Position numbers and translations under genes: made by a program
Notes under the pieces: model-generated
The model's input: only the letters and a program-made list of their open reading frames with translations
What the model was told of the DNA's origin: nothing
Databases searched by the model: none
Virus record (IMG/VR): IMGVR_UViG_3300028920_000040
Coordinates: 1 to 64,000 of that record
Origin: a virus
Strand: one strand, 5' to 3'
Length of the DNA stretch: 64,000 bases
Shown: piece after piece, positions 18,037-55,375 of the stretch
Layout: the number at the start of each line of letters is the position of its first letter
How positions within the stretch are numbered: position 1 is the first letter of the stretch

Positions 18037-19356
18037 ATGAATAAAAAAGAAATTGTGAGGAAATGGGAAGCTGCTGAAGGCAAGATGTCCATTAAGGACA
18101 TTAAAGATGTCTATGTCAAGGAAAACCTTGCACAGCTCCTTGAGAACCAAGAACAGAAGGATTGGAATGGTAATGACCTCTTTCTGGCAGAAGCCAGTCA
18201 GGGCGCAGTGAATACCGGTACCCTTGGTGGTACGACAGATGGTTCCAGCGATCCACAGTCATACATTTTCCGTCCCGTTGCTCTGGCTCTCGTTAGACGT
18301 ACATTCCCTGACCTCTTCGCTAACAAGGTCGTCGGTGTTCAGGCACTTTCGACTCCAGTTGGTCTTGCATACGCTTTGCGTGTCAAGTACAACGATGATA
18401 GTGGAAATGAGGCGGCTTGGGACGTCGTCGATTATTATGGTGGATACACTGGTAGCCAGGTCGGAACTTCTGGCGCCCTTAAGCAGGTTTCTGCTAATGG
18501 TATCTACGACACTTCTGCAACTGGTGCTGACACTAGTGCGGCTGAAGGTTGGACAATTGCTAACGCATGTACGTCCGCTAACACCGGTGCTACTGGCTGT
18601 GGTTCTTATCCTGAACTTAAGCTTGTCATTGATCAGATTGCAGTAACCGCCAAGACAAGAAAGCTAGCAGCTAGCTTCTCGCTTGAAGCCGCTCAGGACG
18701 TTAAGGCCATGCACGGTGTCGATATCGAACGTGAAATGGTTAACTTCCTGCAGTATGAGATTACGGCCGAACTCGACCGTGAGCTTCTTGCAAGAATGAA
18801 GACCGCTGCTGTTGATACTGCTAATGGTGGTGTAAGCATCAGCCCTATCGATCTGACAGGTAGCGGAACTGGTATTGACGGTCGTTGGAGTGGTGAGAAG
18901 TACATGAATGTTGTTGCTTCCATCGTCCATCAGGCTAACCAGATCGCAATCTCCACTCGTAGGGGTGCTGGTAACTTTGTGGTTGTGTCTCCTGCCATCG
19001 CTTCGATGCTCCAGGCGGCTGGTCACCAGTTTGTCCAGTACAAGTCGGCTGTCAATCCTTCTACTGTCATGGCTGCCATCGGCAAGCTTAACGGCACTCT
19101 TGATGTGTACCGTGATCAGTATGCAAGAACTGACTATGCTCTTGTTGGTTACAAGGGTCCTGGTATTTCGGACTGTGGAGTTATCTTCAGCCCTTATATC
19201 ATGGGTCTTACCAATAGGGCTATTGAGCCTTCTGATTTTACTCCAAGGATCGGCGTTATGTCCAGATATGCAATCACCGATACATTGCTCGGTGCTGGTC
19301 GTTACTACCGTCAGATTCCTTTCACCAATGTTAACAAGGTTATCGCTGGTGCGTAA
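18037..19356 (+). CDS. gp23: Major capsid protein (T4 gp23-like)
   Basis: QLLENQE, LVRRTFPDLFA..VGVQALSTPVG, AKTRKLAASFSLEAAQDVKAMHG, RRGAGNF, VGYKG, DFTPRIGVMSRY. Likely maturation site LAE|A. Higher-GC, high-expression codon bias. Confidence 0.97.
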   Translation: MNKKEIVRKWEAAEGKMSIKDIKDVYVKENLAQLLENQEQKDWNGNDLFLAEASQGAVNTGTLGGTTDGSSDPQSYIFRPVALALVRRTFPDLFANKVVGVQALSTPVGLAYALRVKYNDDSGNEAAWDVVDYYGGYTGSQVGTSGALKQVSANGIYDTSATGADTSAAEGWTIANACTSANTGATGCGSYPELKLVIDQIAVTAKTRKLAASFSLEAAQDVKAMHGVDIEREMVNFLQYEITAELDRELLARMKTAAVDTANGGVSISPIDLTGSGTGIDGRWSGEKYMNVVASIVHQANQIAISTRRGAGNFVVVSPAIASMLQAAGHQFVQYKSAVNPSTVMAAIGKLNGTLDVYRDQYARTDYALVGYKGPGISDCGVIFSPYIMGLTNRAIEPSDFTPRIGVMSRYAITDTLLGAGRYYRQIPFTNVNKVIAGA

Positions 19357-19377
19357 TTGGTAGTAGAATTACGAATT

Positions 19378-19408
19378 AAAGGGTGGGTTTTTAACTCACC
19401 CTTTTTTT
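19378..19408 (+). terminator. Rho-independent terminator after the major capsid gene
   Basis: Stem aaagggtgggtt / aactcacccttt (one G-U pair) followed by a T run. Confidence 0.85.
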
Positions 19409-19428
19409 ACGCCCATACTTGATTAAAA

Positions 19429-19436
19429 TATAAATA
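19429..19436 (+). promoter_or_regulatory. T4-type late promoter TATAAATA
   Basis: Exact consensus just after the terminator, before ORF 19480. Confidence 0.7.
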
Positions 19437-19479
19437 GTTATGTAGAAATTTGTTTTGATTTGTTTGTAGGAGGTTTATT

Positions 19480-19794: not shown

Positions 19795-19802
19795 TAGATA
19801 TT

Positions 19803-19810
19803 TATAAATA
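19803..19810 (+). promoter_or_regulatory. T4-type late promoter TATAAATA
   Basis: Exact consensus before the neck gene. Confidence 0.7.
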
Positions 19811-19831
19811 CAGCTATAGGAGGATGTTTCT

Positions 19832-21501: not shown

Positions 21502-22419
21502 ATGGAACAATATTATTATCCAGAAACTATAAAAAATATTACAATTGCTCTTCTTGATATGTTTGATGGCCTTGAAATTAAGAAGTATGATGTAAGCGGT
21601 ACTCTTGTAGAATCTAGAAATGTAACTCTTACATTCGGCCCTACTGATAAAATACGAAAAGATAGAATAGAAAATCATTATTATGATACTAGTGGCACGG
21701 GCCGAGAAACTCAAGTTTACGAATCCGGTCGAAGATATTATCCTTTACTTCCAAGAATGGCTTTAGTTCTTGGTGATATTTCTTATGATCCAAATAGAGC
21801 ATATGGAGTAAACGAGTGGAGATATTGGTTTGCTGAAACTTTAGAACTTAGTGGAACACATGATATAAACGAAGTTCTAAGAGACTATCAACCAACTCCA
21901 TATACTCTTGGTTATACATTAAATATAATGTCCGATTCTTTAGATTACTTTGCTCAAATAATGGAAAATATTCTTCCATACTTTAATCCAAAATTAATGT
22001 TAAGAGTAAAAGAATTTTCTTTTCTTAATATAGAAAGAGATTTACCAGTTTCTATTTTATCTATTACTCCAGAAATGGTTGATGATATGGATGAAAATGA
22101 AACCAAATATACTAATGCAACGATAGCAATTCAAGTCGAAGCATTTATGTATAGACCATTTGAATATAGTAAAATTATTAAATATATTCATTCGAAGTAT
22201 CTTGTTGCAACAGACGCAGGATCAGTATCAGCAGCAACAACTTCTGCTGGTTTACTTTCTGCATCTAGATATGATACTTCGGGCGTTAGTACATCCGGTG
22301 GAGAAATTGATACAAGCGCATTTCCACCATCAGGTTCATATAATATTAGTGGTAGCTTTGCAGGCGATCCACCAGAAACATATTATTATTTCACCAGCGC
22401 AGACCCTTATGATAACTAG
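21502..22419 (+). CDS. gp15: Tail sheath stabilizer/completion protein (T4 gp15-like)
   Basis: LLPRM, PTPYTL, QIMENILPYFNP. Position before the terminase genes. Confidence 0.85.
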   Translation: MEQYYYPETIKNITIALLDMFDGLEIKKYDVSGTLVESRNVTLTFGPTDKIRKDRIENHYYDTSGTGRETQVYESGRRYYPLLPRMALVLGDISYDPNRAYGVNEWRYWFAETLELSGTHDINEVLRDYQPTPYTLGYTLNIMSDSLDYFAQIMENILPYFNPKLMLRVKEFSFLNIERDLPVSILSITPEMVDDMDENETKYTNATIAIQVEAFMYRPFEYSKIIKYIHSKYLVATDAGSVSAATTSAGLLSASRYDTSGVSTSGGEIDTSAFPPSGSYNISGSFAGDPPETYYYFTSADPYDN

Positions 22420-22948: not shown

Positions 22949-24526
22949 ATGTATATGGGAAACGCATCTTTGCGTAAAGCCGGAGAAGAAATTGAATATA
23001 CTCCTGAAATGCTTCAAGAATATGTCCGGTGCAAAGAAGATATAATTTATTTTGCAGAAAAATATTTTTATATAATTACTATTGATGAAGGAAAAATATT
23101 AATAAATCTTTATAATTTTCAAAAGAAAATTTTAAAAGCATGTATTGATCCTCCAGACCATAGAAATTATCTCATAACAATGATGCCTCGCCAGCAAGGA
23201 AAGACTACAACATTCTCTATATATTTTCTTTGGTATATTTTATTTCATAGAGATAAGACAGTTGCTCTCTTAGCAAACAAACAATCAACAGCCATTGAAA
23301 TATTAGATAGAGTAAAAACTGCATATCAAAATCTTCCTCTTTGGTTACAGCAAGGAATTGCTGATGCAGGATGGAATCAAAAATCAATTTCATTAGAAAA
23401 CGGTTCAAGAATTATTGCAGAAAGTACTTCATCAGATGCTATTTCCGGCTGGACGATTTCTCTTTTGTACTTGGATGAGTTTGCAAAAGTTCCAAGACAC
23501 GTTGCAGAAGATTTTATTACATCGACATATCCTGTTATTTCCAGCGGACAAACTTCTAAAATTATGATTGTCAGTACTCCTGTCGGATTAAATCACTTTT
23601 ATGAATTTTGGATTAAAGCAGTAAGAGGTCAAAATAACTTTTATCCTATTAAAGTTGGATGGTGGGAAAAACCAGGAAGGGATAAGGAATGGAAGAAGAA
23701 GACAGAAGCGGATATTGGAAAGCTTCGTTTTGCACAAGAGTATGGTTGCAAATTTCTTGGTAGTTCTTCTACTCTTATTGATTCTGATATACTTGAACAA
23801 ATTGAACTTAAAGACCCAATTGATACTAAATGGACTGGACTGTTTAATATTTATGAGGAACCAAAGTCAGGTGCAGTTTATGTATTAGGAGTGGATACAG
23901 GCAAGGGAGTCGGCCGAGATTATTCAGTTATTCAGGTATTAAAAATAGTTAGTAGTACTGAAATATATCAAGTTGCTGTATATAGAAATAATCAAATTTC
24001 TCCTCAGGATTTTGCACAGGTATGTATTTCAGTATCAGAATTTTATAATAATGCTCAAATGATGGTAGAAAATAATGATATTGGCCAGACAGTATGTGAT
24101 ACAATTTGGTATGAATATGAGTGTGATAGATTATTAAATTTTGATACTGATGTTAATAAGATAAGAAAGAATCTTGAGCTTGGAATTAGGAGTACTAGAA
24201 AGACAAAACTTCAGGCAAATGTATTACTTAAAAATTATATGGAAAAAGAATGGTTATCGATTTGTGACCAGAGAACTGTTTATGAATTAAGCAGATATGA
24301 AGAAGTAAGACCAAATGTATTTAATGCAGGGCGAGACGATCACGACGATTGTGTTACATCTCTTTTATGGGCATTATTTTATGTAAATACTCCTTATTAT
24401 GAGGGATTTGATATGGGTAACAAGACGATAGACACTAAATACAGGATAGATAATGACGAAGAGGATGATTCTATTTATGATGAGCCTCCTCCAGTTGTTT
24501 TTGATGGTGAAGAGTATTATTATTAA
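22949..24526 (+). CDS. gp17: Terminase large subunit (T4 gp17-like)
   Basis: YMGNASL, Walker A PRQQGKTT, Walker B LLYLDEFA, VSTP.G.NHFY, QEYGCKFLGS, GVDTGKGVGRDYS, HDDCV. Confidence 0.97.
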   Translation: MYMGNASLRKAGEEIEYTPEMLQEYVRCKEDIIYFAEKYFYIITIDEGKILINLYNFQKKILKACIDPPDHRNYLITMMPRQQGKTTTFSIYFLWYILFHRDKTVALLANKQSTAIEILDRVKTAYQNLPLWLQQGIADAGWNQKSISLENGSRIIAESTSSDAISGWTISLLYLDEFAKVPRHVAEDFITSTYPVISSGQTSKIMIVSTPVGLNHFYEFWIKAVRGQNNFYPIKVGWWEKPGRDKEWKKKTEADIGKLRFAQEYGCKFLGSSSTLIDSDILEQIELKDPIDTKWTGLFNIYEEPKSGAVYVLGVDTGKGVGRDYSVIQVLKIVSSTEIYQVAVYRNNQISPQDFAQVCISVSEFYNNAQMMVENNDIGQTVCDTIWYEYECDRLLNFDTDVNKIRKNLELGIRSTRKTKLQANVLLKNYMEKEWLSICDQRTVYELSRYEEVRPNVFNAGRDDHDDCVTSLLWALFYVNTPYYEGFDMGNKTIDTKYRIDNDEEDDSIYDEPPPVVFDGEEYYY

Positions 24527-24621: not shown

Positions 24622-26508
24622 ATGCCAAGAGTTTTTAAGACACCGGGTGTTTATAGGGAAGAAATTGATCTTTCTGAAATTCTAATTCCTGGAGGCATTT
24701 CTGACGGTGGAGTAGTACTTAGAGCTAAAAAAGGTCCTATTAACAGACCAGTTCTTATTTCAAACGATAAAGAATTTGTAGAAACATTTGGTGAACCTAT
24801 CTATGTTTCTGGAACGGGAACAAGCACAACTCTTCAAAAGTTAACTCCCGAGTGGGGTTATGGAGCATATGCCGCTCTTGAATTTCTTAAAGAATCTTCA
24901 ACTCTTTATGTTGTAAGAGACTATGATTCAGACAACGATGTTTATGCTGAAGTTGCTTATGAAACAGATTTGAGTGTAGATACTTCCGCATATAAAACAA
25001 GTGCGTTAGATTATTCTATTACTGTTTCTGCAGGAACAAGACCATCTGGAGTTATAGATAGAGTAGATAGAATTTATTCTATTGATACTGCTTCTGAAAA
25101 TATGAGCACGCAAGAACTTCTTGTTGCCGCTCTTGGTCCTGGTACGGATGGAAATGATATTGCTGTTACTATTGAACCATTTAGTATTTCTGCTGATTGG
25201 AAGTTTACTTATGATGGATATCCAACATCTTCTGATGCCGCTTCTGCATCATTAAGTGTGGCAGAAATGGTAACATATTATCCTATTGGTGTCAACGTAT
25301 TTAAGATGAATGTATATACTAAACCTAGTACTGCAAACTGGTCTGACTATTATACTTTATCTGGTGACCAAGCAAATAATAGACTTAGAATTTCTCCTGT
25401 AGAAACATTCTATGGAAGTTTAACTTCACAAGTGGACGGAAATAATAATCAGCTTTATATTGAAGATGTTGTTAATGGAAATTCACAATACATTTATGTA
25501 AAGACTAAACTTGGAGCATCAACGAGATTTACCCCTTTTACATCTGAGGCTCAAGCTTCAAATCTTCCAGTTAAAGAAGATTCTAACGGAACGGAATATG
25601 TCGATTATCAAATGCTCGGAGAACTTTCCGGTGGTGTTGCTCCTATTCCAAATGAAACGGCTCTTACTTCTACAACTAACTGGGACCTCTTTGAAAACAG
25701 AGAAGAAGTAAATGTTGGAATTCTGATTTGTCCTACATACAAAACCGCAGTTAAGCAAGAAGTTGCCAGAGTCACTGCAAAGAGACTTGACTGTATTGCC
25801 GTTGTGCAGGCCGCTGATCTAACTAAAGAAACGACAACTAATGTTCTTGATCAAGAAGAATATGGATATCAGTCGCCTTCATATGTGGCAATATACGCAG
25901 GATATGCCAAGGTCTATGATAAGTACAATGATAAGTTTGTATTTCTACCTAACGCAATCTTTGGTGCTTCCTTGATGGCAAGAACTGATAGAATTGCAAA
26001 TCCTTGGGATGCTCCTGCTGGTATAGACAGAGGAACTCTTTCTGTTCTTGATCAGAGAAAGATTTGGACAAGTGTTGATATTGGAAAGCTTTACGAAAAA
26101 AATATTAATACAACAAAATTTCATAGAGGTGTCGGTCATGTAATGTGGGGACAGAAGACTGCTCAAATGAAAGCTTCTGCTCTTGATAGAATCAATGTTA
26201 GAAGAAATCTTCTTTACATTGAAAATAATGTGGAACCGGCTCTTGTCCAGTTCATCTTTGAGAACAACACATCAAAGACAAGATTGAGAGTATTCTCTCT
26301 TGTTGATAGCTTCCTTGCTGGTGTACAAGCTGGTGGTGGATTAACAGCTTATCAGGTTGTTGTTGATGAAAGTAATAATACTGCTGATGTTATCGACGCT
26401 AACCAGATGATCGTTGATATTTATGTACAGCCTGTTAGAGCAATTGAGTTCATCCAGTTGAGAACTATTATAACAAGAACTGGAGTTAGTTTCGAACAGA
26501 TAGTGTAA
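24622..26508 (+). CDS. gp18: Tail sheath protein (T4 gp18-like)
   Basis: TPGVYREEIDLS, KGPINRP, PWDAPAGIDRG, WGQKT..SALDRINVRR, VVDESNNT, QPVRAIEFI. Confidence 0.97.
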   Translation: MPRVFKTPGVYREEIDLSEILIPGGISDGGVVLRAKKGPINRPVLISNDKEFVETFGEPIYVSGTGTSTTLQKLTPEWGYGAYAALEFLKESSTLYVVRDYDSDNDVYAEVAYETDLSVDTSAYKTSALDYSITVSAGTRPSGVIDRVDRIYSIDTASENMSTQELLVAALGPGTDGNDIAVTIEPFSISADWKFTYDGYPTSSDAASASLSVAEMVTYYPIGVNVFKMNVYTKPSTANWSDYYTLSGDQANNRLRISPVETFYGSLTSQVDGNNNQLYIEDVVNGNSQYIYVKTKLGASTRFTPFTSEAQASNLPVKEDSNGTEYVDYQMLGELSGGVAPIPNETALTSTTNWDLFENREEVNVGILICPTYKTAVKQEVARVTAKRLDCIAVVQAADLTKETTTNVLDQEEYGYQSPSYVAIYAGYAKVYDKYNDKFVFLPNAIFGASLMARTDRIANPWDAPAGIDRGTLSVLDQRKIWTSVDIGKLYEKNINTTKFHRGVGHVMWGQKTAQMKASALDRINVRRNLLYIENNVEPALVQFIFENNTSKTRLRVFSLVDSFLAGVQAGGGLTAYQVVVDESNNTADVIDANQMIVDIYVQPVRAIEFIQLRTIITRTGVSFEQIV

Positions 26509-44053: not shown

Positions 44054-46636
44054 ATGGCTACTAATAACTTTTTAAAGTACTCTGGAATGACATATTCAGA
44101 GCTGATCAGTCAGATTAATGACAGACTATTGGCGGATAGTAGATTTGATAACTTCAGAGAATCAGCAATTGCACAAATGCTCATAGAGATTTTTGCTGGT
44201 GCTACTGATATTGTTAATTACTATCTAGATAGAAGAGCAGAAGAATGTTACTTTGATACGGCAAGACTTAGAAGTTCTGCCATACTTCTGTCCCGTCAAC
44301 TGGGCTATGTTGTAACGAGGGCGGTTCCTGCGTCTACAACTATAAAAACAAAAATTGCTGGTGACCTATCTACTCTATCAACACCAATAACTTCAGGAGA
44401 TAAACTTCAAGTTCCTGTTCACTCCGTTTTTAGTTATAATGGAAACGACTATATTTTAAAACAGACTTTTACTCATACATTTACCCAATCAGAAGTTGAT
44501 AATATTACTGTTCTCGGCGAAAATTTTGAGTTGGAAATTTCAACTGATGATAATGGAAATACAATATCTTTAGCTCAAGGAGAACTTAAAGAAAAAGTTA
44601 TTGATGGAAGCACAAATCCTTCCGTAGGTCAAATTTTTCAGGTATATAAAATTGAAGACGATACGTTTAGTAATATATATGGAACCAGTGATTATGATAT
44701 TCCGACGACAAGAGTTTGGGTAGGAAATAATAAAACAAACGCAACAGAATATGATATTGATAGAAGATCATTAATTAACTGGGAATCATTAGAAAGTCTA
44801 GCTGCAGGAACTTCTAAAGATGTATGTGTGATTAGAACTTCAACCGACGAAGATGTAGAAATTCTTTTTGGTGATAATCAATATGCAAGTGTTGGTGCGG
44901 CTACAAATCAAGACAATATTTTTATTCAGTATCTATCTACAGTTGGTTCTAAAGCAAATGAGGTTGGAGTCATTGGTCAGCAGATAGAATATGAAGGACA
45001 GATATTAGATCAGAATGGTCAGGACATAACCGAATTTATTACTTTTGAGTTTGTTACTAATATTACTGGTGGAGCAGATATGGAAAGTCTTGATTCAATC
45101 AAGAATAATGCTCCTGCAATTTATTATTCACTTGATAGACTTGTAACTAAAACAGACTATATTGCATATTTAAAATCATTAACAACTCCAATTAATATTC
45201 AGAATGCACTTGCTTGGGGCGAACAAGAAGAAGTTTTAAAACTTACAAACGGAGATGGTGTTATTGAAAAACTTTTTAATGTTGTTATGTTTAGTTGTCT
45301 TGGAGAATTATATAATATAAGCGTATCAGAATATTTTCCATATACTCAAGGAAATGGATTAGAAAATGTCGTCCTCGACGCGGATTTTGATGAAGATGCA
45401 ATTAATGCTCAAAGTTATTTCAATTTATATATTAGACAGGATGTAGTAAAACAATTAAACAGATATGAGGTTAGTGCATCATATTGGTGGTTAGCAAGTA
45501 GTAATCCAAGTACAAATGTGGGATCATATTATGAAGGGCAATATGGAGACTCTGCTGTATTAGAATTTGATTATACTTCAGATACTGCAGGAATAGGTTT
45601 GTCTGCTTCTGCAACATCGACTGTTGATATGACAACTCCTTCTTATAGTACATTTAATACTGTATCAGGAACTATGACTCAATATGCGACCGATCTTACA
45701 ACTGCTCTTACAGCAGTAACAGATAATAGAGGAGACTCCACAGCACAAAATTCAAATTATGGAAGTCCTGCATTTCCAGGAATAGAATGTACATATAATT
45801 CAATAGAAAACAGATTGGAAATTAGAACTGCAAACAGTGATGTTTGTTATATTTCAAATATAAGATATTCATCCGCAACAAATAATATTGCTTCTGATAC
45901 TGGTCTTAGTGCAAAATCAATGCAGAAGTTATACGAACAGACTTTTGAAGATATTAGTGATAATACATTAACGGTTATTAATAGTATTCAAGAAAGAAGT
46001 CAGGTAACAACAAGAGCAGTTTATATAAGTCCTATTATTCATAACCTTGTTGTTAGTGGAACTGTCTATGTTAATAATCTTTATGATAGAGAATCGTTAA
46101 GAACTGAATTAAATAATGATGTTTATGAATGGTTAAACATCAATGCAGATTTTAATGAAGATATTTATAAATCAAATATTATAGAAATTATTGAAGATAG
46201 TCCGGGTATAAGAAATGTCGATATGAACTTTGGTGCAGTAGCATTAACTCCTCCTGCAGGATATAGTACTTTTTCCACGGCGGCTATAGTTTCAGAAATT
46301 GATTCTTGGCCAGTTGTATCTGATAGATCAAGTATTGAAACTATTTTTATTGCTTATGTTAATTCTATAACTACTAATCCAACAGTAACTTCTGGGGGAG
46401 AAAGATGGTTCTTAGAAACTTGGGCAAAGGGATTTTATGATACATTGGTCGCACAAGGATATACAAGCTTTGCAGATAGTACTGCATTTATTAATTTAGT
46501 TACTGCAGTACATAAAGATTTTTCTGTTCAAATTAAAAATAGTTTAATTGATTCACAAGGTAATATTACAAACTATACAATTGGAAACGAAATTGTTAAA
46601 CTCACCATTACACTAAGTTATGTGTATGCGACGTAA
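44054..46636 (+). CDS. gp6: Baseplate wedge protein (T4 gp6-like)
   Basis: ECYFDTARLRSS..LSRQLGY, ILFGD, GGADMESLDSIKNNAP..RLVTKTDY, AWGEQE. Confidence 0.9.
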   Translation: MATNNFLKYSGMTYSELISQINDRLLADSRFDNFRESAIAQMLIEIFAGATDIVNYYLDRRAEECYFDTARLRSSAILLSRQLGYVVTRAVPASTTIKTKIAGDLSTLSTPITSGDKLQVPVHSVFSYNGNDYILKQTFTHTFTQSEVDNITVLGENFELEISTDDNGNTISLAQGELKEKVIDGSTNPSVGQIFQVYKIEDDTFSNIYGTSDYDIPTTRVWVGNNKTNATEYDIDRRSLINWESLESLAAGTSKDVCVIRTSTDEDVEILFGDNQYASVGAATNQDNIFIQYLSTVGSKANEVGVIGQQIEYEGQILDQNGQDITEFITFEFVTNITGGADMESLDSIKNNAPAIYYSLDRLVTKTDYIAYLKSLTTPINIQNALAWGEQEEVLKLTNGDGVIEKLFNVVMFSCLGELYNISVSEYFPYTQGNGLENVVLDADFDEDAINAQSYFNLYIRQDVVKQLNRYEVSASYWWLASSNPSTNVGSYYEGQYGDSAVLEFDYTSDTAGIGLSASATSTVDMTTPSYSTFNTVSGTMTQYATDLTTALTAVTDNRGDSTAQNSNYGSPAFPGIECTYNSIENRLEIRTANSDVCYISNIRYSSATNNIASDTGLSAKSMQKLYEQTFEDISDNTLTVINSIQERSQVTTRAVYISPIIHNLVVSGTVYVNNLYDRESLRTELNNDVYEWLNINADFNEDIYKSNIIEIIEDSPGIRNVDMNFGAVALTPPAGYSTFSTAAIVSEIDSWPVVSDRSSIETIFIAYVNSITTNPTVTSGGERWFLETWAKGFYDTLVAQGYTSFADSTAFINLVTAVHKDFSVQIKNSLIDSQGNITNYTIGNEIVKLTITLSYVYAT

Positions 46637-46643: not shown

Positions 46644-48977
46644 ATGGCATATTGGGTAGACATAAATAACTCTTATTCATCGACTGGTGCTGGTACTAGT
46701 GTATCTCCATTTAGTTGGTCTCAATTCATAACTGATTTAGCAGATGCTTCTTTAAGTACTAGAACATATTATGTATCTGGTACTAGAACATTATCAACCA
46801 ATACAACTATAACAATTGACTCTATTGATACGTCTACTACAGGCGCATCAGTCGTTACTATTAATGATTGGGATGGCGAGCCTTGGAGAATTATAGGAGA
46901 TGCTAGTGTAGGAATTATTAATATTAATTCTTCTTATGTTAGATATCTTTATTTGCGCGGAGGTATGATCCAAGGAACTAAAAGTGGATTTTTCTCCACT
47001 ATATATTGTGCATCTACTCCATCTTCTTTTTGCGATGTTACAATCGATTCGATGTGGATTAATTTTTATACTTCATTTGTAATTCGTAATTATGATGATG
47101 TATATGTTTATAATAGTTTACTTAGTGATACTAATCAAGGATTGGTTGGTTCTAATCCAGGATCGTTTGGAGTTTATAATAGCGATACCGCAACAATAAG
47201 AAATACTATATTGGCAATAGGAGCATTTAGTGCTCCAGATTCGACAAATACATTAGACAATGTTGTTTCTACAAGAGTGGCTTTTCCTATTACAATAGGA
47301 TCATCTATTGATACAAGTAGTTCTGTTCAACTTGATTGGGAATCAGACCCAATTGTTTCATCTGCGGTAAATTTATTAAGCGCTTCTAATATAAGTTATC
47401 TTACATCCTCTTTTGATGGAATATCTGCAACTGGAAATGCATCACCCGCATTATCATATACATGGTTTGATGGAACAAGAGATGGAGTCGGAGCACTTTA
47501 TTTTCCAACGATTACAGTAAGTGCTTCTGCTACTCCTTCATCTGCCGCCGCGGGTGATACTATAACGATTGATATAAATGATGTTTTTACAGAATTTAGT
47601 GCTTCGAGTGCAACATTTAATTTTGGCGATTCAACAAGTACGACTGTAAATGAACCATCAGCAACTCATGTTTATTCTGCTGTTGATGATTATAGTGTTA
47701 CTGTTTCTGTTCTTTCTAAGAATGAATGGTATAGTTCTGTATCTGATGCTATAACAGTTTCTATATCTGCTGGTGATGCATCGGCGACATTTGAATTTTT
47801 AGATTCTGATACTTCTGCAGTAACAACTTCTGCTGAAACATATACTGACGTTTTAATGTCAGCAACAATAGTTAGTGGTGATGTTGTTTCTTATATAATG
47901 GACTGGGGAGATGGTACATCTTCTACATATACAGGATCAGACCCGATAAGTACTATTCCAGTATTAACACACCAATATATTTCATCGGGAAGTCTTACAG
48001 GAACAATTAGTGTTAATAATAGAAATCCTTTTAATAAAAGTTTAAATACATATATTAGAACTCCGACGACATATTATGTAGATATTAATAATTCATATAC
48101 TTCTTCAGGTAATGGATTATTAGCAACCCCATTAAATTATTCTCAATTCAAGACTACAATTGAGGATGGTGGAGATGGAGAATTTGGAGATATATTTAAA
48201 TTAAAGGGATATAGAGAATTAACATATGGTACGGATTTTGTTAATAGTTTAATATTAATAGCCGATCCAACTCTTTCGTTTGTAATTGATGCTTGGGATT
48301 TATCTGCATATGGTCCTTGGATGATCTCGCCGGAAATTTATCCGGGCGCATTAACATCAATATTGTCATTTAAGAACAGTACTCTTAAAAATGGAATTTT
48401 ATATAATAGAGTTTACTTTGATAATAGAGGAGTTATTTTTTATCTTTCTTCAATGAAAGATACTTTCGTTGTTAATCAAGGAACAAATAGTAGAATTATT
48501 CTTTCTCCAAGTACACAATTAAGCGGTACTCCTATTAGTGGGTGTGATATTATTGGTTCGACATTATATTGTGAAAATGGATATAGAGATAATGCAGATC
48601 AAGCATACGATATAAATCTTACTGACTCTGTATTTGTTGGATTTGAAAATCAAGTTAGTGGAACATATTTTACTAGTGCAACAGTAAATATAACTAACAG
48701 TACTTTTACAGACGATGCTTCTTCATTATTATCAGGATTTAATATTGGTACGAGCGCGAGTTCACAATATGGATGGACTGCTCCAACAGATTATCCGTTT
48801 ACTCCTACTAATGAAGCATATGGACAATCACTAGATTGGCTATTACTAAATAAAAGAGCTTTAAGACCATTCTCTGGAATTACAACTCCTCCAAATCCTG
48901 GTGATGGATATGATACATATCCGGGTTATACAACTGGATTATTTGGAAATTCTAGAAAAGACTATGAGGCACCATAA
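46644..48977 (+). CDS. Virion surface protein with beta-helix-like modules and PKD-like domains
   Basis: Two Y(W/Y)VDINNSY..G.G...P modules. PKD-like FNFGD..THVY and DWGDG..THQY. Ser/Thr-rich. Confidence 0.7.
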   Translation: MAYWVDINNSYSSTGAGTSVSPFSWSQFITDLADASLSTRTYYVSGTRTLSTNTTITIDSIDTSTTGASVVTINDWDGEPWRIIGDASVGIININSSYVRYLYLRGGMIQGTKSGFFSTIYCASTPSSFCDVTIDSMWINFYTSFVIRNYDDVYVYNSLLSDTNQGLVGSNPGSFGVYNSDTATIRNTILAIGAFSAPDSTNTLDNVVSTRVAFPITIGSSIDTSSSVQLDWESDPIVSSAVNLLSASNISYLTSSFDGISATGNASPALSYTWFDGTRDGVGALYFPTITVSASATPSSAAAGDTITIDINDVFTEFSASSATFNFGDSTSTTVNEPSATHVYSAVDDYSVTVSVLSKNEWYSSVSDAITVSISAGDASATFEFLDSDTSAVTTSAETYTDVLMSATIVSGDVVSYIMDWGDGTSSTYTGSDPISTIPVLTHQYISSGSLTGTISVNNRNPFNKSLNTYIRTPTTYYVDINNSYTSSGNGLLATPLNYSQFKTTIEDGGDGEFGDIFKLKGYRELTYGTDFVNSLILIADPTLSFVIDAWDLSAYGPWMISPEIYPGALTSILSFKNSTLKNGILYNRVYFDNRGVIFYLSSMKDTFVVNQGTNSRIILSPSTQLSGTPISGCDIIGSTLYCENGYRDNADQAYDINLTDSVFVGFENQVSGTYFTSATVNITNSTFTDDASSLLSGFNIGTSASSQYGWTAPTDYPFTPTNEAYGQSLDWLLLNKRALRPFSGITTPPNPGDGYDTYPGYTTGLFGNSRKDYEAP

Positions 48978-49609
48978 TGAATTTTTTGCAGATTTGGATT
49001 GGTAAGAAACCTAATAAGAAAATTTTAAAATGTATGGAAACAGTTATTGATAAAGTAACTGATAATGATACTTATACATTGATATCAAATAAAAATTTTC
49101 TTAGTAAAATTAAGACAACAAATATAGATTGGATAAATATAGAAGAATATGAATTTAAAATGATGAAGTCGAATAAAATTATTAAAATGATAATAGAATT
49201 TTGTAGATTAAATGATAATCATTTTTATAGATCGTGTAGATCAGATTTAATAAGACTTTGGGAAGCTTCTCGTAAAAATAATTTATTTTATCTTGATACT
49301 GATGTAGAATTAAAAAAGATACCAGATTTTATTAATAATAAAATACCTTATATAGCAGGAATAAAAAGAAAAAGAAAAATTAAAAAAGATTATTTTATAA
49401 TATACAATAATAATAATAAGAAATTTTTTAAAGAACTTCTTAGTGAAATTGTTAATCAATGTTATTATCCTAGAAGAAAACGTCTTATTAGATGCGAAAT
49501 TAATAGAATGTGGATATATAATAAATTACAATATAAAGACAAAACAATGATTATAGACAATATTAATTTTAAACATTTAAATATGTATCAACAACGGAAA
49601 GATAAATGA
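48977..49609 (+). CDS. GT32-like DxD glycosyltransferase
   Basis: LQIWIG N-terminus, RSDLIRL, FYLDTDV. Very AT/Lys-rich compared with neighbours. Confidence 0.7.
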   Translation: MNFLQIWIGKKPNKKILKCMETVIDKVTDNDTYTLISNKNFLSKIKTTNIDWINIEEYEFKMMKSNKIIKMIIEFCRLNDNHFYRSCRSDLIRLWEASRKNNLFYLDTDVELKKIPDFINNKIPYIAGIKRKRKIKKDYFIIYNNNNKKFFKELLSEIVNQCYYPRRKRLIRCEINRMWIYNKLQYKDKTMIIDNINFKHLNMYQQRKDK

Positions 49610-51333
49610 GTACATATTATTCAAATATAGATAATAGTTATAATACTACAAGCGGCGACGGTACTTTAGGCGATCCTTGGAATAAAGATCAACTTGAAGA
49701 TTTTTTTGATAAAGATTTATCTGCTAATCCTGGTGTATCTGTTTCGGATGGTGATATTATAAAATTAAGAGGAGAATGGATTGAACCAACGGGCAATGCT
49801 GTTTTATATACTGATGTTTCTGCTATTGACTTTACTATTGAGGCGTGGGATTTAGAAACATATGGTCCTTGGAAAATAGCAGGAGAAACGCCGTCCGACA
49901 GTGTGCGCATGTATATGTCTACTGATTTCATCTCCCCAGCAGTTAGTGGTACTGTTACAATTAAAGATGGTGTTATTCGAGGCCCAGAAATTGATGTAAT
50001 TACTCCACACATTATTATCGATTATATTATCAAAAATACAATATTTATAAATAATTTTAATATTCAGAAAGATAATACAATTGGAGGACAAGATTATATT
50101 TACGGCTGTACTTTTAGTAATGTCCCAGAAATTAATATGGTTAATTATAATGAGTCGGATAATATTATAAACTTTAACGATTCTGTTTTTTATAATAGTA
50201 TTGTATATAGTGGTGGTGATTATAATACTATGAATTATAATAGTTGTACTTTTTCTGGAACATCCGCAGATATTTTTAATGGTATAGATACTTCTGCAAT
50301 AAATATTTCATCATGTAATTTTGAATGGGTACCATCTACAACTATGCCATCTTTTAATAATATAACAATTGCTAATAAAGAAGCGTTAAGTTGTATGAAA
50401 ATGGGATTAGAATATTCTGTCAATCCAAGAAGAGGAATATGGACAACATTAAAGTCGCTGCCTTTTACATATGGAGATGATTATCCATATGGATTATTTG
50501 GATATAATAGACTTGGTCCCGGCGCATTATATTTTGGTGATGGGATGTATGTTGATTTAAGTGCCTCTGTCTCGGGAACTGGAACATCAGCTTCGCCATT
50601 TAATGGTACGGAAGTTCAAGAATTATATAATGGTACTATAGTATATTCGTGGGCCAATGGAGTTCATCCAAGAGATATTATAATTTTAAGAGGCAGTTTA
50701 GATCAGCCAACTAACATTGATTTTAATAAAGAATATACAAATATTTCGATGGCACCATGGGATTATGATTTATACGGACCGTGGAGAATGAAATCGGACG
50801 CGTCAATTCTTCTTGGTCCGACCGATTTCGGCGACGATACCCGGGGCGATTGTATAATTATAGGGGCTATTTTAAGTGCCGCTAATACTATATCTATAGG
50901 ATATGCTAATATAGCAAATGTATTTTTTAATGCAACAGATGCTACGTATGCTGTATCCATGTGGGGCAATACTCAAGTTCGTGGTATAAGTGGATGTACT
51001 ATTTTTACTAATGGAACTGTAATTAGTTTTAGTCATCATAGCGCAGGAGAAACCAATTGGATTTTTAAGGATACTATAATAGAAGGAGTATTAGATAATA
51101 ATGGGGTTATTTGTAATGTTTCTGCCGATAATATGGTGACAGATTCGGCCGATGCTAATTATTTTTCAGCAGCGGCTACACCTGTTACAACATATGTTGA
51201 AACAGGGGATGTAGAATACGGATGGACTCCTTTTACTGTTCCTGCCTGGGACGATCCAAAAGAATCATATTCATACCAATCACTAACATCCGGCGCGAGC
51301 TCGATATCAATTTCTGGTTCAGGAGAATGGTAA
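49606..51333 (+). CDS. Virion surface protein, paralog of 46644 (two modules)
   Basis: Shares WDL..YGPW, DII.LRG, YGWT and GLFG..R.G.GALYF motifs with ORF 46644. Confidence 0.7.
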   Translation: MSTYYSNIDNSYNTTSGDGTLGDPWNKDQLEDFFDKDLSANPGVSVSDGDIIKLRGEWIEPTGNAVLYTDVSAIDFTIEAWDLETYGPWKIAGETPSDSVRMYMSTDFISPAVSGTVTIKDGVIRGPEIDVITPHIIIDYIIKNTIFINNFNIQKDNTIGGQDYIYGCTFSNVPEINMVNYNESDNIINFNDSVFYNSIVYSGGDYNTMNYNSCTFSGTSADIFNGIDTSAINISSCNFEWVPSTTMPSFNNITIANKEALSCMKMGLEYSVNPRRGIWTTLKSLPFTYGDDYPYGLFGYNRLGPGALYFGDGMYVDLSASVSGTGTSASPFNGTEVQELYNGTIVYSWANGVHPRDIIILRGSLDQPTNIDFNKEYTNISMAPWDYDLYGPWRMKSDASILLGPTDFGDDTRGDCIIIGAILSAANTISIGYANIANVFFNATDATYAVSMWGNTQVRGISGCTIFTNGTVISFSHHSAGETNWIFKDTIIEGVLDNNGVICNVSADNMVTDSADANYFSAAATPVTTYVETGDVEYGWTPFTVPAWDDPKESYSYQSLTSGASSISISGSGEW

Positions 51334-51861: not shown

Positions 51862-52836
51862 ATGTCTGATCTTTCTGCATGTAAATCAAGAGAAGAATAT
51901 ATTAGTCTTTGCGGACCTGATGTAACCAGGTACGGCGACGATCGTTATATTAATCTTGTAGATTATCTTCCACTATATTTAAAAGGTTCTGATGTTGAAA
52001 CATTTACTCAATTCTTTCAAGATTTTCTTAATGAAATGTTTGATGGTGTTGGTGGATCGAGTATTTCTTCTACTGATCTTGATGTGACTACAACATATGG
52101 TGCCAGCGGAACCATGAGTGGATCATATACTTTTGATAGTAGTGCAATGCCTACAAGTGCTTCAGAAGTACAAGAATATGATATATCAGCATCAACTGTT
52201 GATAAAATATCTATACTTGAAAAAGTAAAGAGATTAACAGAGCTTCATGATCCTGATTTAATTGATATAGAGTATATACAATTTTTTGCAAAGAATTTAG
52301 GATATAATATTAATTTGACAAGAGATCAAATTGGAGTTGGTTCTGATGTAGGAAATTTAGCAACTCTTGATCCGACAGCATGTTCAGCAACAGATCAAAG
52401 TAAATATCTTAGATTTATGGTTAGAAATTTACCTAATTGGTATAAGATTAAGTCGACTAATAATGCAGTAAAGATAATGCTTTATTCGTTTGGGCTTATT
52501 GGAGATATAGTAGAATACTATACAAATCAATATAACACAAATGGAAATTGGGTATTGGATTATGATGGAAGCCTTACTGATATTCCAAATGATTATTTCC
52601 CAACTCCTCACTTTGCCGTAGTTGTTAATGTAGATGAAAGTGCGAATATTTCTTTAGATGCGGCTAGGAGAGAAAAAATTCTTGCCGCTATTGAATCAAT
52701 AAGACCTATTAATACAGTTTTTGAACAGTTGTCTGCATATATGTTAAGGACTATTACATTATATGCTGGATTAGTCACTAGGTTTAATAAGTATATTAAA
52801 ATAACCTCAAATGGTTATTCGGACTATTGGGTATAG
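51862..52836 (+). CDS. Baseplate wedge protein (gp7/P2 gpI-like)
   Basis: LHDPDLIDIEYIQFFAKNLGY, WYKIKST..AVKIMLYSFG, IESIRPINT. Confidence 0.65.
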   Translation: MSDLSACKSREEYISLCGPDVTRYGDDRYINLVDYLPLYLKGSDVETFTQFFQDFLNEMFDGVGGSSISSTDLDVTTTYGASGTMSGSYTFDSSAMPTSASEVQEYDISASTVDKISILEKVKRLTELHDPDLIDIEYIQFFAKNLGYNINLTRDQIGVGSDVGNLATLDPTACSATDQSKYLRFMVRNLPNWYKIKSTNNAVKIMLYSFGLIGDIVEYYTNQYNTNGNWVLDYDGSLTDIPNDYFPTPHFAVVVNVDESANISLDAARREKILAAIESIRPINTVFEQLSAYMLRTITLYAGLVTRFNKYIKITSNGYSDYWV

Positions 52837-52842
52837 TCTTAT

Positions 52843-52850
52843 TATAAATA
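52843..52850 (+). promoter_or_regulatory. T4-type late promoter TATAAATA
   Basis: Exact consensus upstream of ORF 52886. Confidence 0.7.
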
Positions 52851-52885
52851 ATTAAGATAGAACCAAATACAAGGAGATAGATAGA

Positions 52886-55375
52886 ATGCCTAACACTGTT
52901 GTTACCTCAGCCGGACTTGATTATATTACATGTGCTTCCGATGTAGGAACACTCATTGCAATTAAGTACTTTGTTCCTGTTTATGACTACCGATACGATC
53001 CTGAAGTCATAACGAGTGGGGCATACTCCGCCGTGTCTGATGAAGTAGAGGGTCTTAGTGCGCCCGTTGGTGAAATTATTTGGAATACATCTGCGGATGA
53101 TGGATATGCACTTCTACAAAATGCTATTTTATCTGCTGGTGATCCTCCGGTTGGAGATTTGGTTACTAATCATCCTTGGAATAACTGGCCAGGAGAAGGT
53201 GTCAACACATATAATGGCGTGCCTCTATCAGATAGTTATGTTGGCGATTCTATTTCTATGAGTGGTGCTAATAACTTCGTAGTAGAAAATATTCAATCTT
53301 CTGCCGGTAATAATGATCCTTATACTGCTACTAATGATAAGTTTTTCCCAGTTACAGATTATTATCCTGTAACAAGTGGTGGAAATATTCGCGGATCGTG
53401 GAAATGTAGACTTGGTAAAACTATTGGTAAATGTAAATTCAATAAGGTTGCTCTTTATGTTACAGCATTTATAAATGGTGTTCAGACAAGCGATCCTCCT
53501 GTTTTCTTTGCAGAAGCGTCAATAGATTCTCCTATTGTTAAAACCGACTTAGCACAACAGGGATATGATGATGTTGTCATGGATGTGCAGATAGATATAC
53601 AATCTGTTACATCCGCATTTGATAGTGTATTCTTTTCTACTTCAGGAGACTATTGGAGCAGAAGTCCCGACGGTTCTCTTTATTATCCTGAAAAGATTGG
53701 TGTTGGAAGTTTTGAAGGCGGATTAGAAAACCCACAGGCAACAGCACATCTTAGAAGAACAAGAAGTACTTCGGGTATTCCTCAAGTAAGAATAGATGAA
53801 GATTATGATTATTATGCAACAATTGATGTAAGTGATTATGCATTTGCGGCGAATAAACTAACATTTCTTGATATTAATTTAGAGAATGCTAATTCAGGAA
53901 CTTCTGCACTTAAAAATTTAGGAGCAATAAGACCAGATATAGATGCTTATTATTATTTGGGATATGATATTGGTGCTACTACTCCAACTAGAAGATGGCG
54001 CGGCGCATATTTTTCACATACAATAAATGTTGGTGATGGAGATGGTGCTTCAAATAGAGTATTAATTAGTTCGGCGTCTGGTGTTACATTGTATAATGGT
54101 ACTGATAATAATCTTAATTTTGTTGGTGGCGATCTTTATAGAGATGAAACAGAACTTCTTACATATACAAGAAGCAGTAGTACGTCTGGAAAAGATGTAT
54201 GGGCTATTGCTGGAGTAGATGAGACAGGAACATGGTATGATAATATTTCTCATAATGAAATATTAAGTGCGGCTACTGGTACTTCACCAACTGCGGCAAC
54301 ATATAAAGGAAGATTTAATAAGTATGCTTCATTAAATATGTTAGCTCGTAATGGAGCAAATGTTTATGGATATATTAATGTCGATTCTAGAGGAACTCCA
54401 GATGTAGGAACTACGCAGTTTGATCAGGGGCTTGTAATGTCTAATCAAAATGCATTGGTATTAATAGGAGGATTATCAGGAAATATTGGTACGACACTTA
54501 TAGTTGATAAAATTAACAACGGGCTTCCTAATGTATTTGATCCATATTTAAAAACAGATGCTAGACTTGATCTTATATCTAGAACCATTTATACATATGG
54601 AAATATTATTCCTTGGTCAACTTCGGCCCATGATATTGGAAGCCAATCTAGAGTTTATAATAATATTTATGCGAATAGTATTGGTACTGTTTCTAAAAAG
54701 ATTTCTAGTATATATGGAAATATAGTATATGGAGAAAAAATTTCTACTAACACAACATTTACATTAAATCCTTATTATACAGATACAGATGGTTTTTATG
54801 AATTAAGTAGAGGAGTACCGAACGGATATTGGTCTTATTTACCAAATCTTTCATATACTGCAGGTAGTACTATCTTTGGGTCTGAGGCAATAGGACTTCC
54901 GTCAATTGATGGAACAGCAAATCTTACAGTTGGAGAAGATAATCCTTCTATGAGTGATTTGGGACAGGTTTTCAAGAAATTTAAGGTTTATGATTTTAAA
55001 TATACATTTTTAGGAAAAACAATAATATTGTCATTTACTATTTACGTAGAGTTTCAAGAAAATAGTAATCCATTAAACGATATTGGAGGATCATCACTTG
55101 AATCATTTTTTCCATTTAATATAACATTTGATCCAACACATGCTGGTACACTAAATGCAGAAACATATGAAAGTTATGAAAGTCAAGTATGTAGTAATGG
55201 AAACTACAGTATTGAAACTCCTATATTTATTGGAGCATCGACTCCTACTTCAGAAGAAAATAAAATTATTTTTAAAGTATATAGTGAGGCATTAGTAACT
55301 GGTGGTGGATTTGGAGAAACTCCAGATGATCAAGGAAGTTATCTAAAATTTAATCTTATTCGTCAATTAAGATAA
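52886..55375 (+). CDS. Baseplate-attached tail fibre/spike protein
   Basis: N-terminal VVTSAGL and FNKVALY (baseplate-anchor-like), fibre-like beta-rich body. RBS AGGAG. Confidence 0.65.
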   Translation: MPNTVVTSAGLDYITCASDVGTLIAIKYFVPVYDYRYDPEVITSGAYSAVSDEVEGLSAPVGEIIWNTSADDGYALLQNAILSAGDPPVGDLVTNHPWNNWPGEGVNTYNGVPLSDSYVGDSISMSGANNFVVENIQSSAGNNDPYTATNDKFFPVTDYYPVTSGGNIRGSWKCRLGKTIGKCKFNKVALYVTAFINGVQTSDPPVFFAEASIDSPIVKTDLAQQGYDDVVMDVQIDIQSVTSAFDSVFFSTSGDYWSRSPDGSLYYPEKIGVGSFEGGLENPQATAHLRRTRSTSGIPQVRIDEDYDYYATIDVSDYAFAANKLTFLDINLENANSGTSALKNLGAIRPDIDAYYYLGYDIGATTPTRRWRGAYFSHTINVGDGDGASNRVLISSASGVTLYNGTDNNLNFVGGDLYRDETELLTYTRSSSTSGKDVWAIAGVDETGTWYDNISHNEILSAATGTSPTAATYKGRFNKYASLNMLARNGANVYGYINVDSRGTPDVGTTQFDQGLVMSNQNALVLIGGLSGNIGTTLIVDKINNGLPNVFDPYLKTDARLDLISRTIYTYGNIIPWSTSAHDIGSQSRVYNNIYANSIGTVSKKISSIYGNIVYGEKISTNTTFTLNPYYTDTDGFYELSRGVPNGYWSYLPNLSYTAGSTIFGSEAIGLPSIDGTANLTVGEDNPSMSDLGQVFKKFKVYDFKYTFLGKTIILSFTIYVEFQENSNPLNDIGGSSLESFFPFNITFDPTHAGTLNAETYESYESQVCSNGNYSIETPIFIGASTPTSEENKIIFKVYSEALVTGGGFGETPDDQGSYLKFNLIRQLR

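Follow-up and report, generated by a model that had tools for sequence, protein, structure and literature searches.

A recurrent serine tripeptide on the virion proteins of an uncultured T4-like phage lineage as a candidate O-glycosylation acceptor motif

Why should the same short serine motif recur in virion proteins of unrelated folds? This question is raised by the first 64,000 nucleotides of the IMG/VR virus record IMGVR_UViG_3300028920_000040 (positions 1 to 64,000, hereafter called the window), which carry a T4-like myovirus morphogenesis block. It is taken from the start of a 123,835-bp record that is estimated to be 48% complete. Its genes are all on the + strand and its G+C content is ∼33%. 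An earlier note on this DNA had described a tripeptide in which Ser is preceded by Thr, Val, Leu, or Ile and followed by Ala or Gly, and had read it as the acceptor site of a phage-encoded glycosylation system that coats the virion. Our sequence comparisons partly support this interpretation, which is plausible and better supported than before, although unproven.

The motif was scored as [TVLI]-S-[AG], and the expected count for each open reading frame (ORF) was derived from 1000 shuffles of the whole protein. Counts are given throughout as observed vs. expected. For a pooled test, nine ORFs (gp23, gp15, gp18, gp6, 34642, 46644, 49606, 51862, and 52886) were shuffled either within blocks of 10, 20, or 40 amino acids or over the whole protein, with 400 shuffles per scheme. 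Together these ORFs carry 126 motifs vs. 43.3 ± 6.0 in the 10-residue block shuffles, an approximately threefold excess. The expectation is 39.7 with 20-residue blocks, 38.6 with 40-residue blocks, and 36.8 with whole-protein shuffles, and 126 was reached by 0 of 400 shuffles in every scheme. The core of the signal is TSA, which is found 41 times vs. 7.2 in the 10-residue block shuffles (∼6-fold; 5 to 7 across schemes) and vs. 16.6 under a first-order Markov expectation. The structural ORFs are thus enriched beyond composition, which is what the earlier note had proposed to establish by comparison with shuffled sequences. The examples it quoted are located where it placed them in the sequence. 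However, the two assigned to gp13 (TASAG and PASAY, both present in ORF 19832) have Ala before the Ser, and this ORF carries 0 strict motifs.

Those predictions for a sequon that could be tested at the sequence level all hold, in that the motif is directional and Ser-specific as well as enriched beyond composition. In the nine ORFs, the reversed motif [AG]S[TVLI] occurs at expectation (42 vs. 42.9 with 10-residue blocks), as does AST (6 vs. 7), and the Thr-centered analog [TVLI]T[AG] is depleted (21 vs. 35.1). Among the dipeptides of the set, SA is the most strongly over-represented (125 vs. 56.5), and among tripeptides with a substantial count this place is taken by TSA. The residues favored before S-A are Thr (7.2-fold), Leu (4.2-fold), Ser (2.9-fold), Val (2.8-fold), Phe (2.7-fold), and Ile (2.0-fold), and those favored before S-G are Val (3.9-fold), Thr (2.6-fold), and Leu (2.0-fold). 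Gly, Asn, Gln, Glu, and Pro are disfavored in the position before Ser. An artifact of composition or low complexity is ruled out by the 10-, 20-, and 40-residue block shuffles and by the unenriched reversed motif. The motif serines are encoded by TCT (43), AGT (36), TCA (18), TCG (13), TCC (8), and AGC (8), with TCN and AGY codons near their background proportions, and many different nonamers encode the motif. The signal therefore resides at the protein level, and the varied codon triplets and background TCN/AGY proportions rule out a DNA-level motif.

The pooled z-scores are partly circular because the nine ORFs were picked for the motif. When all 148 ORFs of the record are scanned, eight of these nine are flagged, gp6 (7 vs. 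3.4) being the one named ORF below the flag, together with an ORF of 1532 amino acids at genome positions 72501–77099 (24 vs. 8.8). The ten enriched proteins (8948 amino acids) carry 150 motifs vs. 45.3, with TSA at 47 vs. 6.5. The remaining 137 ORFs (28,014 amino acids, leaving out a poly-Ser ORF described below) carry 34 vs. 40.2, with TSA at 1 vs. 3.5. Only 7 of 146 motif contexts across the ten enriched proteins are near-repeats of another, and a single paralogous segment of 100 amino acids is common to ORFs 46644 and 49606. The counts therefore represent largely independent events, as the earlier note had claimed, and internal repeats or paralogy are ruled out as their source. Its statement that the motif is rare in non-surface ORFs was likewise borne out, for the portal (0 vs. 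1.3), protease (0 vs. 0.6), scaffold (1 vs. 0.4), large terminase TerL (1 vs. 0.9), and glycosyltransferase (GT) genes (0 to 2 each). The portal, tube, and hub proteins of the same late gene block are not enriched.

Within the enriched proteins the motif clusters in variable or outward-facing parts (the gp23 insertion, the gp18 non-core region, and the gp15 tail), a pattern that had been noticed by eye and is confirmed here. The major capsid protein gp23 (18037–19356; Pfam Gp23, 5e-84) has five motifs vs. 1.9, all of which fall within residues 144–181 (nucleotides ∼18466–18579). This variable insertion segment replaces residues ∼143–217 of T4 gp23 in alignments. When the sites were mapped on an AlphaFold2 (AF2) model of gp23, as the earlier note had suggested for judging exposure, the low-confidence model (mean predicted local distance difference test score, pLDDT, 61; residues 134–192 below 50) revealed only that the motif segment is outside the confident fold. 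The tail sheath stabilizer gp15 (21502–22419) has 11 motifs vs. 0.9. Its Pfam match (T4-gp15_tss) covers residues 4–234 only, and the motif-laden C-terminal tail comprises residues 242–305 (nucleotides ∼22225–22419). The tail sheath protein gp18 (24622–26508; Pfam) has seven motifs vs. 2.3, at residues 62, 121, 126, 135, 189, 246, and 335, and none in the conserved C-terminal core that aligns with T4 gp18 residues 340–654. From T4 sheath structures, we take the non-core region to be the protruding outer domains. By homology to T4 domains and from the gp23 model, we infer that the motif sites probably face outward in the assembled particle. A short motif that is over-represented beyond composition, directional, and located on parts predicted to be accessible resembles a sequon.

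The remaining enriched proteins of the window are encoded farther downstream. The largest is a protein of 2679 amino acids (34642–42681; 49 vs. 15.7), a putative fiber or baseplate module that matches no Pfam or PHROG family and whose structural role is suggested by the position of its gene between gp5-like and gp25 genes. The baseplate wedge protein gp6 (44054–46636) matches PHROG 219 over residues 7–389, and six of its seven motifs are past residue 390, outside the profile-matched part. Four distal tail proteins follow: a 777-residue protein with a PKD domain recognized by Pfam (46644–48977; 15 vs. 5.0), a 575-residue protein (49606–51333; 14 vs. 2.5), a 324-residue protein (51862–52836; 4 vs. 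1.0), and an 829-residue protein (52886–55375; 14 vs. 3.8). As a separate observation, residues 315–360 and 1343–1360 of the 2679-residue protein contain repeated G-TSA-H-T-H-VEADI units, and the tripeptide HTH occurs five times vs. 0.1 expected. These units presumably recall the His-x-His metal-binding repeats of T4 fiber proteins.

The same pattern is present in relatives. Five viral contigs with gp15 proteins 49%–54% identical to that of the window carry the motif in gp15, gp23, and gp18, and counts for gp15 of such contigs include 10 vs. 0.6, 5 vs. 0.5, and 5 vs. 0.4. Every clade member examined has the motif, most of these contigs being fragments. Larger samples were assembled for the three families, whose totals share ancestry and are not independent samples. 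Among 120 gp23 homologs, the motif is found 595 times vs. 240 (reversed motif, 276). The gp23 residues S145, S160, and S167 carry it in 82%, 92%, and 93% of the 120 homologs, respectively, and are located in the least conserved segment of the protein. For gp18, 120 homologs were sampled. In the non-core region (reference residues 56–335), the counts are 234 vs. 60.9 for the 48 closest homologs and 344 vs. 84.9 for the next 62. The conserved C-terminal core is depleted in both groups (4 vs. 37.7 and 21 vs. 54.7), with the reversed motif at expectation there (36 and 57).

For gp15, the sample consisted of 150 cluster representatives whose pairwise identities do not exceed 50%. The best 60 representatives carry 272 motifs vs. 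47.3 (reversed motif, 43) and the remaining 90 carry 124 vs. 53.4. In the best 60, the last 90 residues alone account for 207 motifs vs. 23.9, even though these tails can hardly be aligned between clusters. No fixed motif spacing was found in the tails of these 60 representatives. The tails have an extended preference that can be written [YF]-[DNP]-T-S-[AG]-[YFV]-[PD].

A complete relative (G001; 264,037 bp with direct terminal repeats) permits a genome-wide count. Fourteen of its 377 ORFs pass the enrichment flag, all of them in a structural block at 167,974–226,148, and these carry 156 motifs vs. 28.5. The other 361 ORFs (121 vs. 116.9) are at expectation, and the portal, terminase, and tube proteins have 0 or 1 motif. 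TSA is the top tripeptide across the entire genome (60 vs. 14.0). Orthologs of the window proteins are still enriched at 22%–74% identity. At 22%–50% identity, the counts are 23 vs. 3.7 (ORF 46644, 33% identity), 10 vs. 1.4, 12 vs. 1.8 (ORF 51862), and 12 vs. 3.8 (ORF 52886). When the window and G001 orthologs are aligned, no more than 21 of the 63 motif sites coincide by column. The motif Ser is conserved at 30 of 63 positions vs. 116 of 341 for other serines (Fisher P = 0.046). Motif density is therefore maintained while individual sites turn over, which looks like a shield of sites rather than a fixed structural element.

Phages outside the clade do not have this pattern. The T4 proteins gp23, gp18, gp15, and gp6 carry 2, 1, 0, and 0 motifs vs. 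1.5, 2.6, 0.4, and 1.5, and gp34, gp37, and gp12 carry 6, 1, and 1 vs. 4.8, 5.0, and 2.4, so that none is enriched. The cyanophage S-SCSM2R encodes 13 GTs according to the available portion of its description (PMC12801897). Its gp23 (0 vs. 1.4) and gp18 (1 vs. 3.5) are not enriched, TSA is at expectation, and the motif reaches twofold at most in its giant fibers. No tripeptide in T4 or S-SCSM2R stands out as TSA does in this lineage. These counts rule out a general trait of T4-like virions or of GT-rich phages.

What process might maintain such a motif? The explanation we favor, to which we give about an even chance, is that [TVLI]-Ser-[Ala/Gly], with a TSA/TSG core, is the acceptor motif of a phage-encoded cytoplasmic O-glycosylation system that acts on virion subunits. 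Late in infection, a Maf-type transferase encoded by ORF 5423–7129, together with its paralogs, would place a sugar of the nonulosonic acid type or another kind on the motif serines in loops, insertions, and tails of capsid, neck, sheath, baseplate, and fiber proteins. Other GTs, methyltransferases, and sulfotransferases may extend and decorate the glycan, and the assembled particle would have a glycan coat on its outer surface. Selection would hold the density of sites high on exposed parts while single sites come and go. The enzyme acting on these proteins, Ser as the modified residue, the identity of the sugar, and the outward-facing location of the sites are all putative elements of this model. 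Maf enzymes are described, in the available portions of two articles (PMC11339370, PMC9290775), as O-glycosylating surface-exposed Ser/Thr residues of flagellin that are flanked or preceded by apolar residues such as Leu or Ile. They add nonulosonic acids in the cytoplasm, and these portions state that their sequon is not known. The preference observed before SA (Thr 7.2-fold, Leu 4.2-fold, Val 2.8-fold) fits this apolar-flank description.

The candidate enzyme, which the earlier note did not name, is a plausible initiating protein O-glycosyltransferase on the basis of its predicted structure. The AF2 model of ORF 5423–7129 (pLDDT 95.8) has two domains, a Maf/MptE-like domain (residues 9–249) and a GT8 domain (residues 295–556). 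The best match for the N-terminal domain is the Magnetospirillum Maf flagellin glycosyltransferase (5mu5_A residues 254–516; Z 13.9, root-mean-square deviation 3.6 Å over 196 residues, 15% identity), and the next is the MptE-type HPPK 8sd5 (Z 10.8). This domain is thus predicted to adopt the Maf catalytic-domain fold. The match came only from the wide VIA-align search; the entries listed by Foldseek for the whole model are of the GT8 type and correspond to the C-terminal domain. Residues 295–556 are predicted to have a GT8-type GT-A fold, with matches to LgtC (1g9r, Z 19.5), glycogenin (3u2t, Z 18.4), UGGT, Skp1 galactosyltransferase, GlyE (5gvv, Z 17.5), and PBCV-1 A64R (2p6w, Z 14.3). GlyE is an enzyme of the pneumococcal Ser-rich-repeat glycoprotein pathway. 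Sequence matches of the C-terminal domain to glycogenin are weak (E 0.15 to 1).

ORF 5423 opens a first sugar cluster (5423–12649) that is upstream of the portal gene. The rest of the cluster (7126–12649) encodes GT2-like, FkbM methyltransferase, GT1-like, radical SAM/SPASM, Gfo/Idh/MocA oxidoreductase, and cupin proteins. No relatives of ORF 7126 were confirmed in the viral contig collection. A second glycan island begins at 59938–63998 with nucleotidyltransferase, GT2, and GT47-like genes and reaches ∼72.3 kb of the genome. Beyond the window (L008:660–9264), it encodes GT10, GT2/7C, and GT15 enzymes, an FkbM methyltransferase, three sulfotransferases, GDP-fucose synthase, a DegT aminotransferase, and a NUDIX protein, and it is followed by the motif-rich 1532-residue ORF. 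Several of its families are eukaryote-like (GT10 fucosyltransferase-like, GT15 Kre2/Mnt1-like, and GT47/RXYLT1-like). This gene content suggests a glycan that is fucosylated, methylated, and sulfated. The earlier estimate of about 11 GT domains in nine genes was too high for the window, where five genes with six domains are supported (ORFs 5423, which has two domains, 7126, 9320, 62055, and 62847); three more GT genes are located just past its end. The complete relative encodes NeuB (209.7 bits), a CMP-sugar synthetase (PF02348, 89.6 bits), and, in its glycan island, a second, smaller MptE/Maf-like gene that exceeds the curated cutoff (PF01973, 41.1 bits). No flagellin family is present among the Pfam matches of the 57 window ORFs, and it is virion proteins that are candidates for the acceptor role. 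The mode of action may be Maf-like, but this is not a system for flagellin. We also observed that the radical SAM/SPASM enzyme (window 10270–11400; L020:9916–10875) is kept within sugar clusters and that its gene adjoins the CMP-sugar synthetase in G001. This enzyme may act in sugar modification.

A different type of candidate substrate is encoded directly beside the Maf-like gene. The ORF at 2–5350, which is open at its 5′ end, encodes 1782 amino acids to the record edge, 67.5% of which are Ser. An N-terminal domain of ∼345 residues precedes ∼1400 residues of (SSSSE/SSSSSE)n, whose DNA repeats are degenerate with mixed Ser codons. The N-terminal domain (window 2–1036), which lies outside the region treated by the earlier note, is motif-enriched (8 vs. 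2.1). Further poly-Ser proteins are encoded at L012:18426–21701 and at 168885–173516 and 176602–179313 of G001. The Ser content of the poly-Ser proteins is 38%–69%, and SSSSE/SSSSSE units number in the hundreds. In the window, L012, and L013/G001, the Maf-like cluster has poly-Ser ORFs at its flank; in three of three records such an ORF is at most 2 kb from the Maf-like gene, and it is directly adjacent in the window and G001. These proteins look like mucin-like stalks and are likely glycosylation substrates. The same machinery would probably use the giant protein of the window as a second, mucin-like substrate. In addition, a conserved C-terminal peptide of the type R-I-M-[MI]-[LI]-S closes the poly-Ser proteins as well as a non-poly-Ser homolog in a more distant relative (window 5300–5350; L013:7272–9983; L005:2–541). 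It may be an anchoring or recognition tail.

Several points weigh against an acceptor motif read by a Maf-type enzyme. The motif is a candidate sequon by sequence criteria, and modification of its Ser is a prediction. Homology to T4 domains and a low-confidence gp23 model, rather than assembled structures, are the basis on which the sites are judged to be exposed. Shared phylogeny enters into the gp18 core depletion and the family-level totals, which are not independent. If a promiscuous cytoplasmic enzyme reads a bare tripeptide, then avoidance of the motif in non-virion proteins might be expected, but such proteins do not avoid it (34 vs. 40.2 here and 121 vs. 116.9 in G001). The PF01973 (MAF_flag10/MptE-like) score of ORF 5423 is 30.3 bits (21.2 bits in a six-frame search), which is below the curated cutoff of 34.6; the family is precomputed for nine of 10 homologs at ≥61% identity. 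Membership in the Maf family rests on the predicted fold and not on the curated sequence threshold. The 48%-complete record that holds the window has no NeuB and gives only 15.3 bits for PF02348. Known Maf substrates are flagellins, which are recognized partly through their fold according to the available part of PMC11339370. Finally, the tightest linkage of the Maf-like gene is to the poly-Ser proteins, whose (SSSSE)n repeats lack the motif, and the GTs may serve these proteins chiefly or alone. However, the N-terminal domain of the poly-Ser protein does carry the motif, and so the two substrate readings are not mutually exclusive.

The richer gp15-tail logo is a further difficulty, since it would suit a docking or structural motif as well. 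Such an element, unrelated to sugars and reused in surface loops, fibers, and the gp15 tail, is the strongest alternative, although we consider it unlikely. It could be a Ser/Thr-capped turn followed by a small residue, or a short linear motif that serves as a binding site for an assembly chaperone or a neighboring virion protein. In the logo, positions −3 and +2 are aromatic and position +3 is Pro, and [YW][FI]TSA is conserved near the gp15 C terminus in many representatives. Moreover, three gp23 sites are near-invariant in position, and some motifs of the 2679-residue protein sit in longer repeats such as TSAHTHVEADI. A role of this kind is difficult to reconcile with the presence of the motif in at least 10 proteins of unrelated folds, with the two thirds of sites that have no positional conservation between orthologs despite the constant density, and with the lack of a fixed spacing period. 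T4 and cyanophage fibers are not enriched, and a fold-specific motif would not account for its being enriched at once in disordered tails, an outer domain of the sheath, and an insertion of the capsid protein.

It is less probable still that the motif Ser takes another modification, such as phosphorylation, acylation, direct sulfation, or radical SAM conversion, by a phage or host enzyme. In that case, the targets of the GTs would be the poly-Ser protein, the host surface, or DNA. A radical SAM/SPASM enzyme and, further on, three sulfotransferases are indeed present in the sugar clusters; sulfotransferase and FkbM families in such islands usually decorate sugars. The Maf-like gene is near a poly-Ser ORF in three of three records, and GTs of other phages have been ascribed to DNA or host-surface modification (PMC12801897, PMC12619734, in their available portions). 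However, no protein kinase or acyltransferase family is among the Pfam matches in the window. Genes for lipid-carrier-linked glycans (initiating phosphoglycosyl transferase, flippase, or polymerase) are also missing from the Pfam matches of 57 window ORFs, 15 ORFs beyond the window, and 23 ORFs of the G001 island, although no dedicated search was made, and this argues against a host-surface target.

It is very improbable that the enrichment has no function of its own and is a by-product of ancestry, local composition, or late-gene mutational bias: common descent does inflate the family-level counts and the enriched proteins are rich in Ser, Thr, Ala, and Gly, but 10-residue block shuffles that keep local composition still give 43 vs. 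126, the reversed motif is unenriched and the Thr analog depleted, the usage of both Ser codon families matches the background, the enrichment does not extend to the portal, tube, and hub proteins of the same late block, and representatives at ≤50% identity with unalignable tails still carry the motif.

The other genes of the window place the motif-bearing proteins in a recognizable context. The T4-like morphogenesis block was identified with Pfam and PHROGs and includes the portal (starting at 14309), prohead protease (16456), scaffold (17196), a gp13/14-like gene (19832), TerL (22949–24526), tail tube (26906), hub and wedge proteins, and gp25 (43656). No family was assigned to several large proteins (the 2679-residue ORF 34642 and ORFs 46644, 49606, 51862, and 52886). 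The gp23 protein is at most 34% identical to those of GenBank phages, the nearest being cyanophages, and for gp15 the top hit in the GenBank phage collection has 28.5% identity and no C-terminal tail; the lineage is therefore uncultured. In metagenomes, gp23 has 1778 relatives at E ≤ 1e-30, the best 120 of which are 62%–100% identical. A 226,364-bp contig in the protein collection carries the window's own gp23, gp18, and GT proteins. Complete relatives of ∼250–264 kb indicate a jumbo T4-like phage, half of whose genes are outside this analysis. As a side observation, terL appears to be split by an inserted ORF in two relatives (L003:12178–15010 and L005:10864–13906). One terL piece ends in a Cys motif of the type that starts an intein, and an endonuclease-like ORF is next to it. 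This arrangement suggests an intein or homing element in these two relatives, which the window terL (22949–24526) is without.

When all of these elements are combined, an uncultured clade of jumbo T4-like phages would build a virion-wide glycocalyx, in which a Maf-type enzyme uses a Thr/Val/Leu/Ile-Ser-Ala/Gly sequon on every exposed structural protein, the sugar is sialic-acid-like and is extended, methylated, and sulfated, and poly-Ser proteins form mucin-like fibers. This full combination is tentative, and we would sooner expect at least one part of it to fail. If true, both the defined sequon of a Maf-type transferase and the sialic-acid-like coat of a phage would be the first of their kind. 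A coat that is sialic-acid-like and sulfated would be relevant to adsorption and aggregation, to the stability of the particle, and to grazing or immune recognition. If the motif is an acceptor site, then glycosylation sites on capsid, neck, sheath, and fibers could be recognized throughout a very large environmental clade by counting one simple motif, and phage glycan shielding would be predictable from sequence. It would also provide a portable acceptor tag for Maf-type transferases and would explain why these phages carry so many sugar genes. Even without a glycan, a directional Ser motif on exposed virion parts across unrelated folds needs explaining. In the literature covered, which leaves out most subscription journals, there is no report of the motif or of Maf-type glycosylation of phage virions. 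As far as found there, phage virion glycosylation has been shown experimentally only for actinobacteriophages.

Known protein glycosylation systems each share some features with the one proposed here. PglL, the enzyme of a general O-glycosylation system, is a periplasmic, lipid-carrier-dependent oligosaccharyltransferase, whereas phage virions assemble in the cytoplasm. No such membrane enzyme is among the Pfam matches of the window, although no search aimed at PglL was made. The likeness is in the acceptor, where Ser is followed by Ala in the sequon WPAAASAP, as given in the available text of PMC11339370. PglL acceptors are Ser residues in Ala/Pro-rich low-complexity regions.

Chlorovirus PBCV-1 brings its own cytoplasmic machinery for capsid glycosylation and uses a non-canonical acceptor context. 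Its A64R protein is among the structural neighbors of the GT8 domain (2p6w, Z 14.3), and methylated sugars are plausible here given the FkbM methyltransferases. However, PBCV-1 is a eukaryotic virus, and its glycans are N-linked to Asn. The Ser-rich repeat glycoproteins of Gram-positive bacteria (GtfA/B, GlyE) resemble the poly-Ser locus in that a giant Ser-rich repeat protein is encoded beside dedicated GTs, and the GT8 domain of ORF 5423 resembles GlyE (5gvv, Z 17.5). The bacterial repeats are of the SASASAST type and differ from (SSSSE)n, and the poly-Ser protein here is phage-encoded. No GtfA/B pair or accessory Sec system turned up, although GtfA/B were not searched for.

Mycobacteriophage virions are glycosylated by phage GTs at the C-terminal ends of capsid and tail tube proteins (Freeman et al. 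2023, as related in the available parts of PMC12619734 and PMC13313380). To the extent that these parts describe them, both systems have phage-encoded GTs, and the motif-laden C-terminal tail of gp15 would be an analogous appendage. In contrast, those phages are actinobacterial siphoviruses rather than a clade of T4-like jumbo myoviruses, and the present candidate sites are on many proteins and in internal insertions, with a candidate enzyme that is Maf-like.

The closest parallel is the Maf system of Campylobacter, Aeromonas, Clostridium, and Magnetospirillum. The complete relative has NeuB and a CMP-synthetase, pathway genes that do not appear in the half-genome containing the window. The candidate substrates here are phage capsid, neck, sheath, and fiber proteins instead of flagellin, the enzyme is fused to a GT8 domain, and the acceptor has a defined tripeptide core, whereas Maf is without a known sequon. 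Two likenesses stand beside these differences: the predicted Maf-like fold of ORF 5423 (Z 13.9 to 5mu5) and the cytoplasmic transfer, one sugar at a time, to exposed Ser/Thr with an apolar flank, which is described for Maf in the available portions of PMC11339370 and PMC9290775 and is predicted for the phage. By analogy, the proposed system would work most like Maf-type flagellin glycosylation moved onto a virion.

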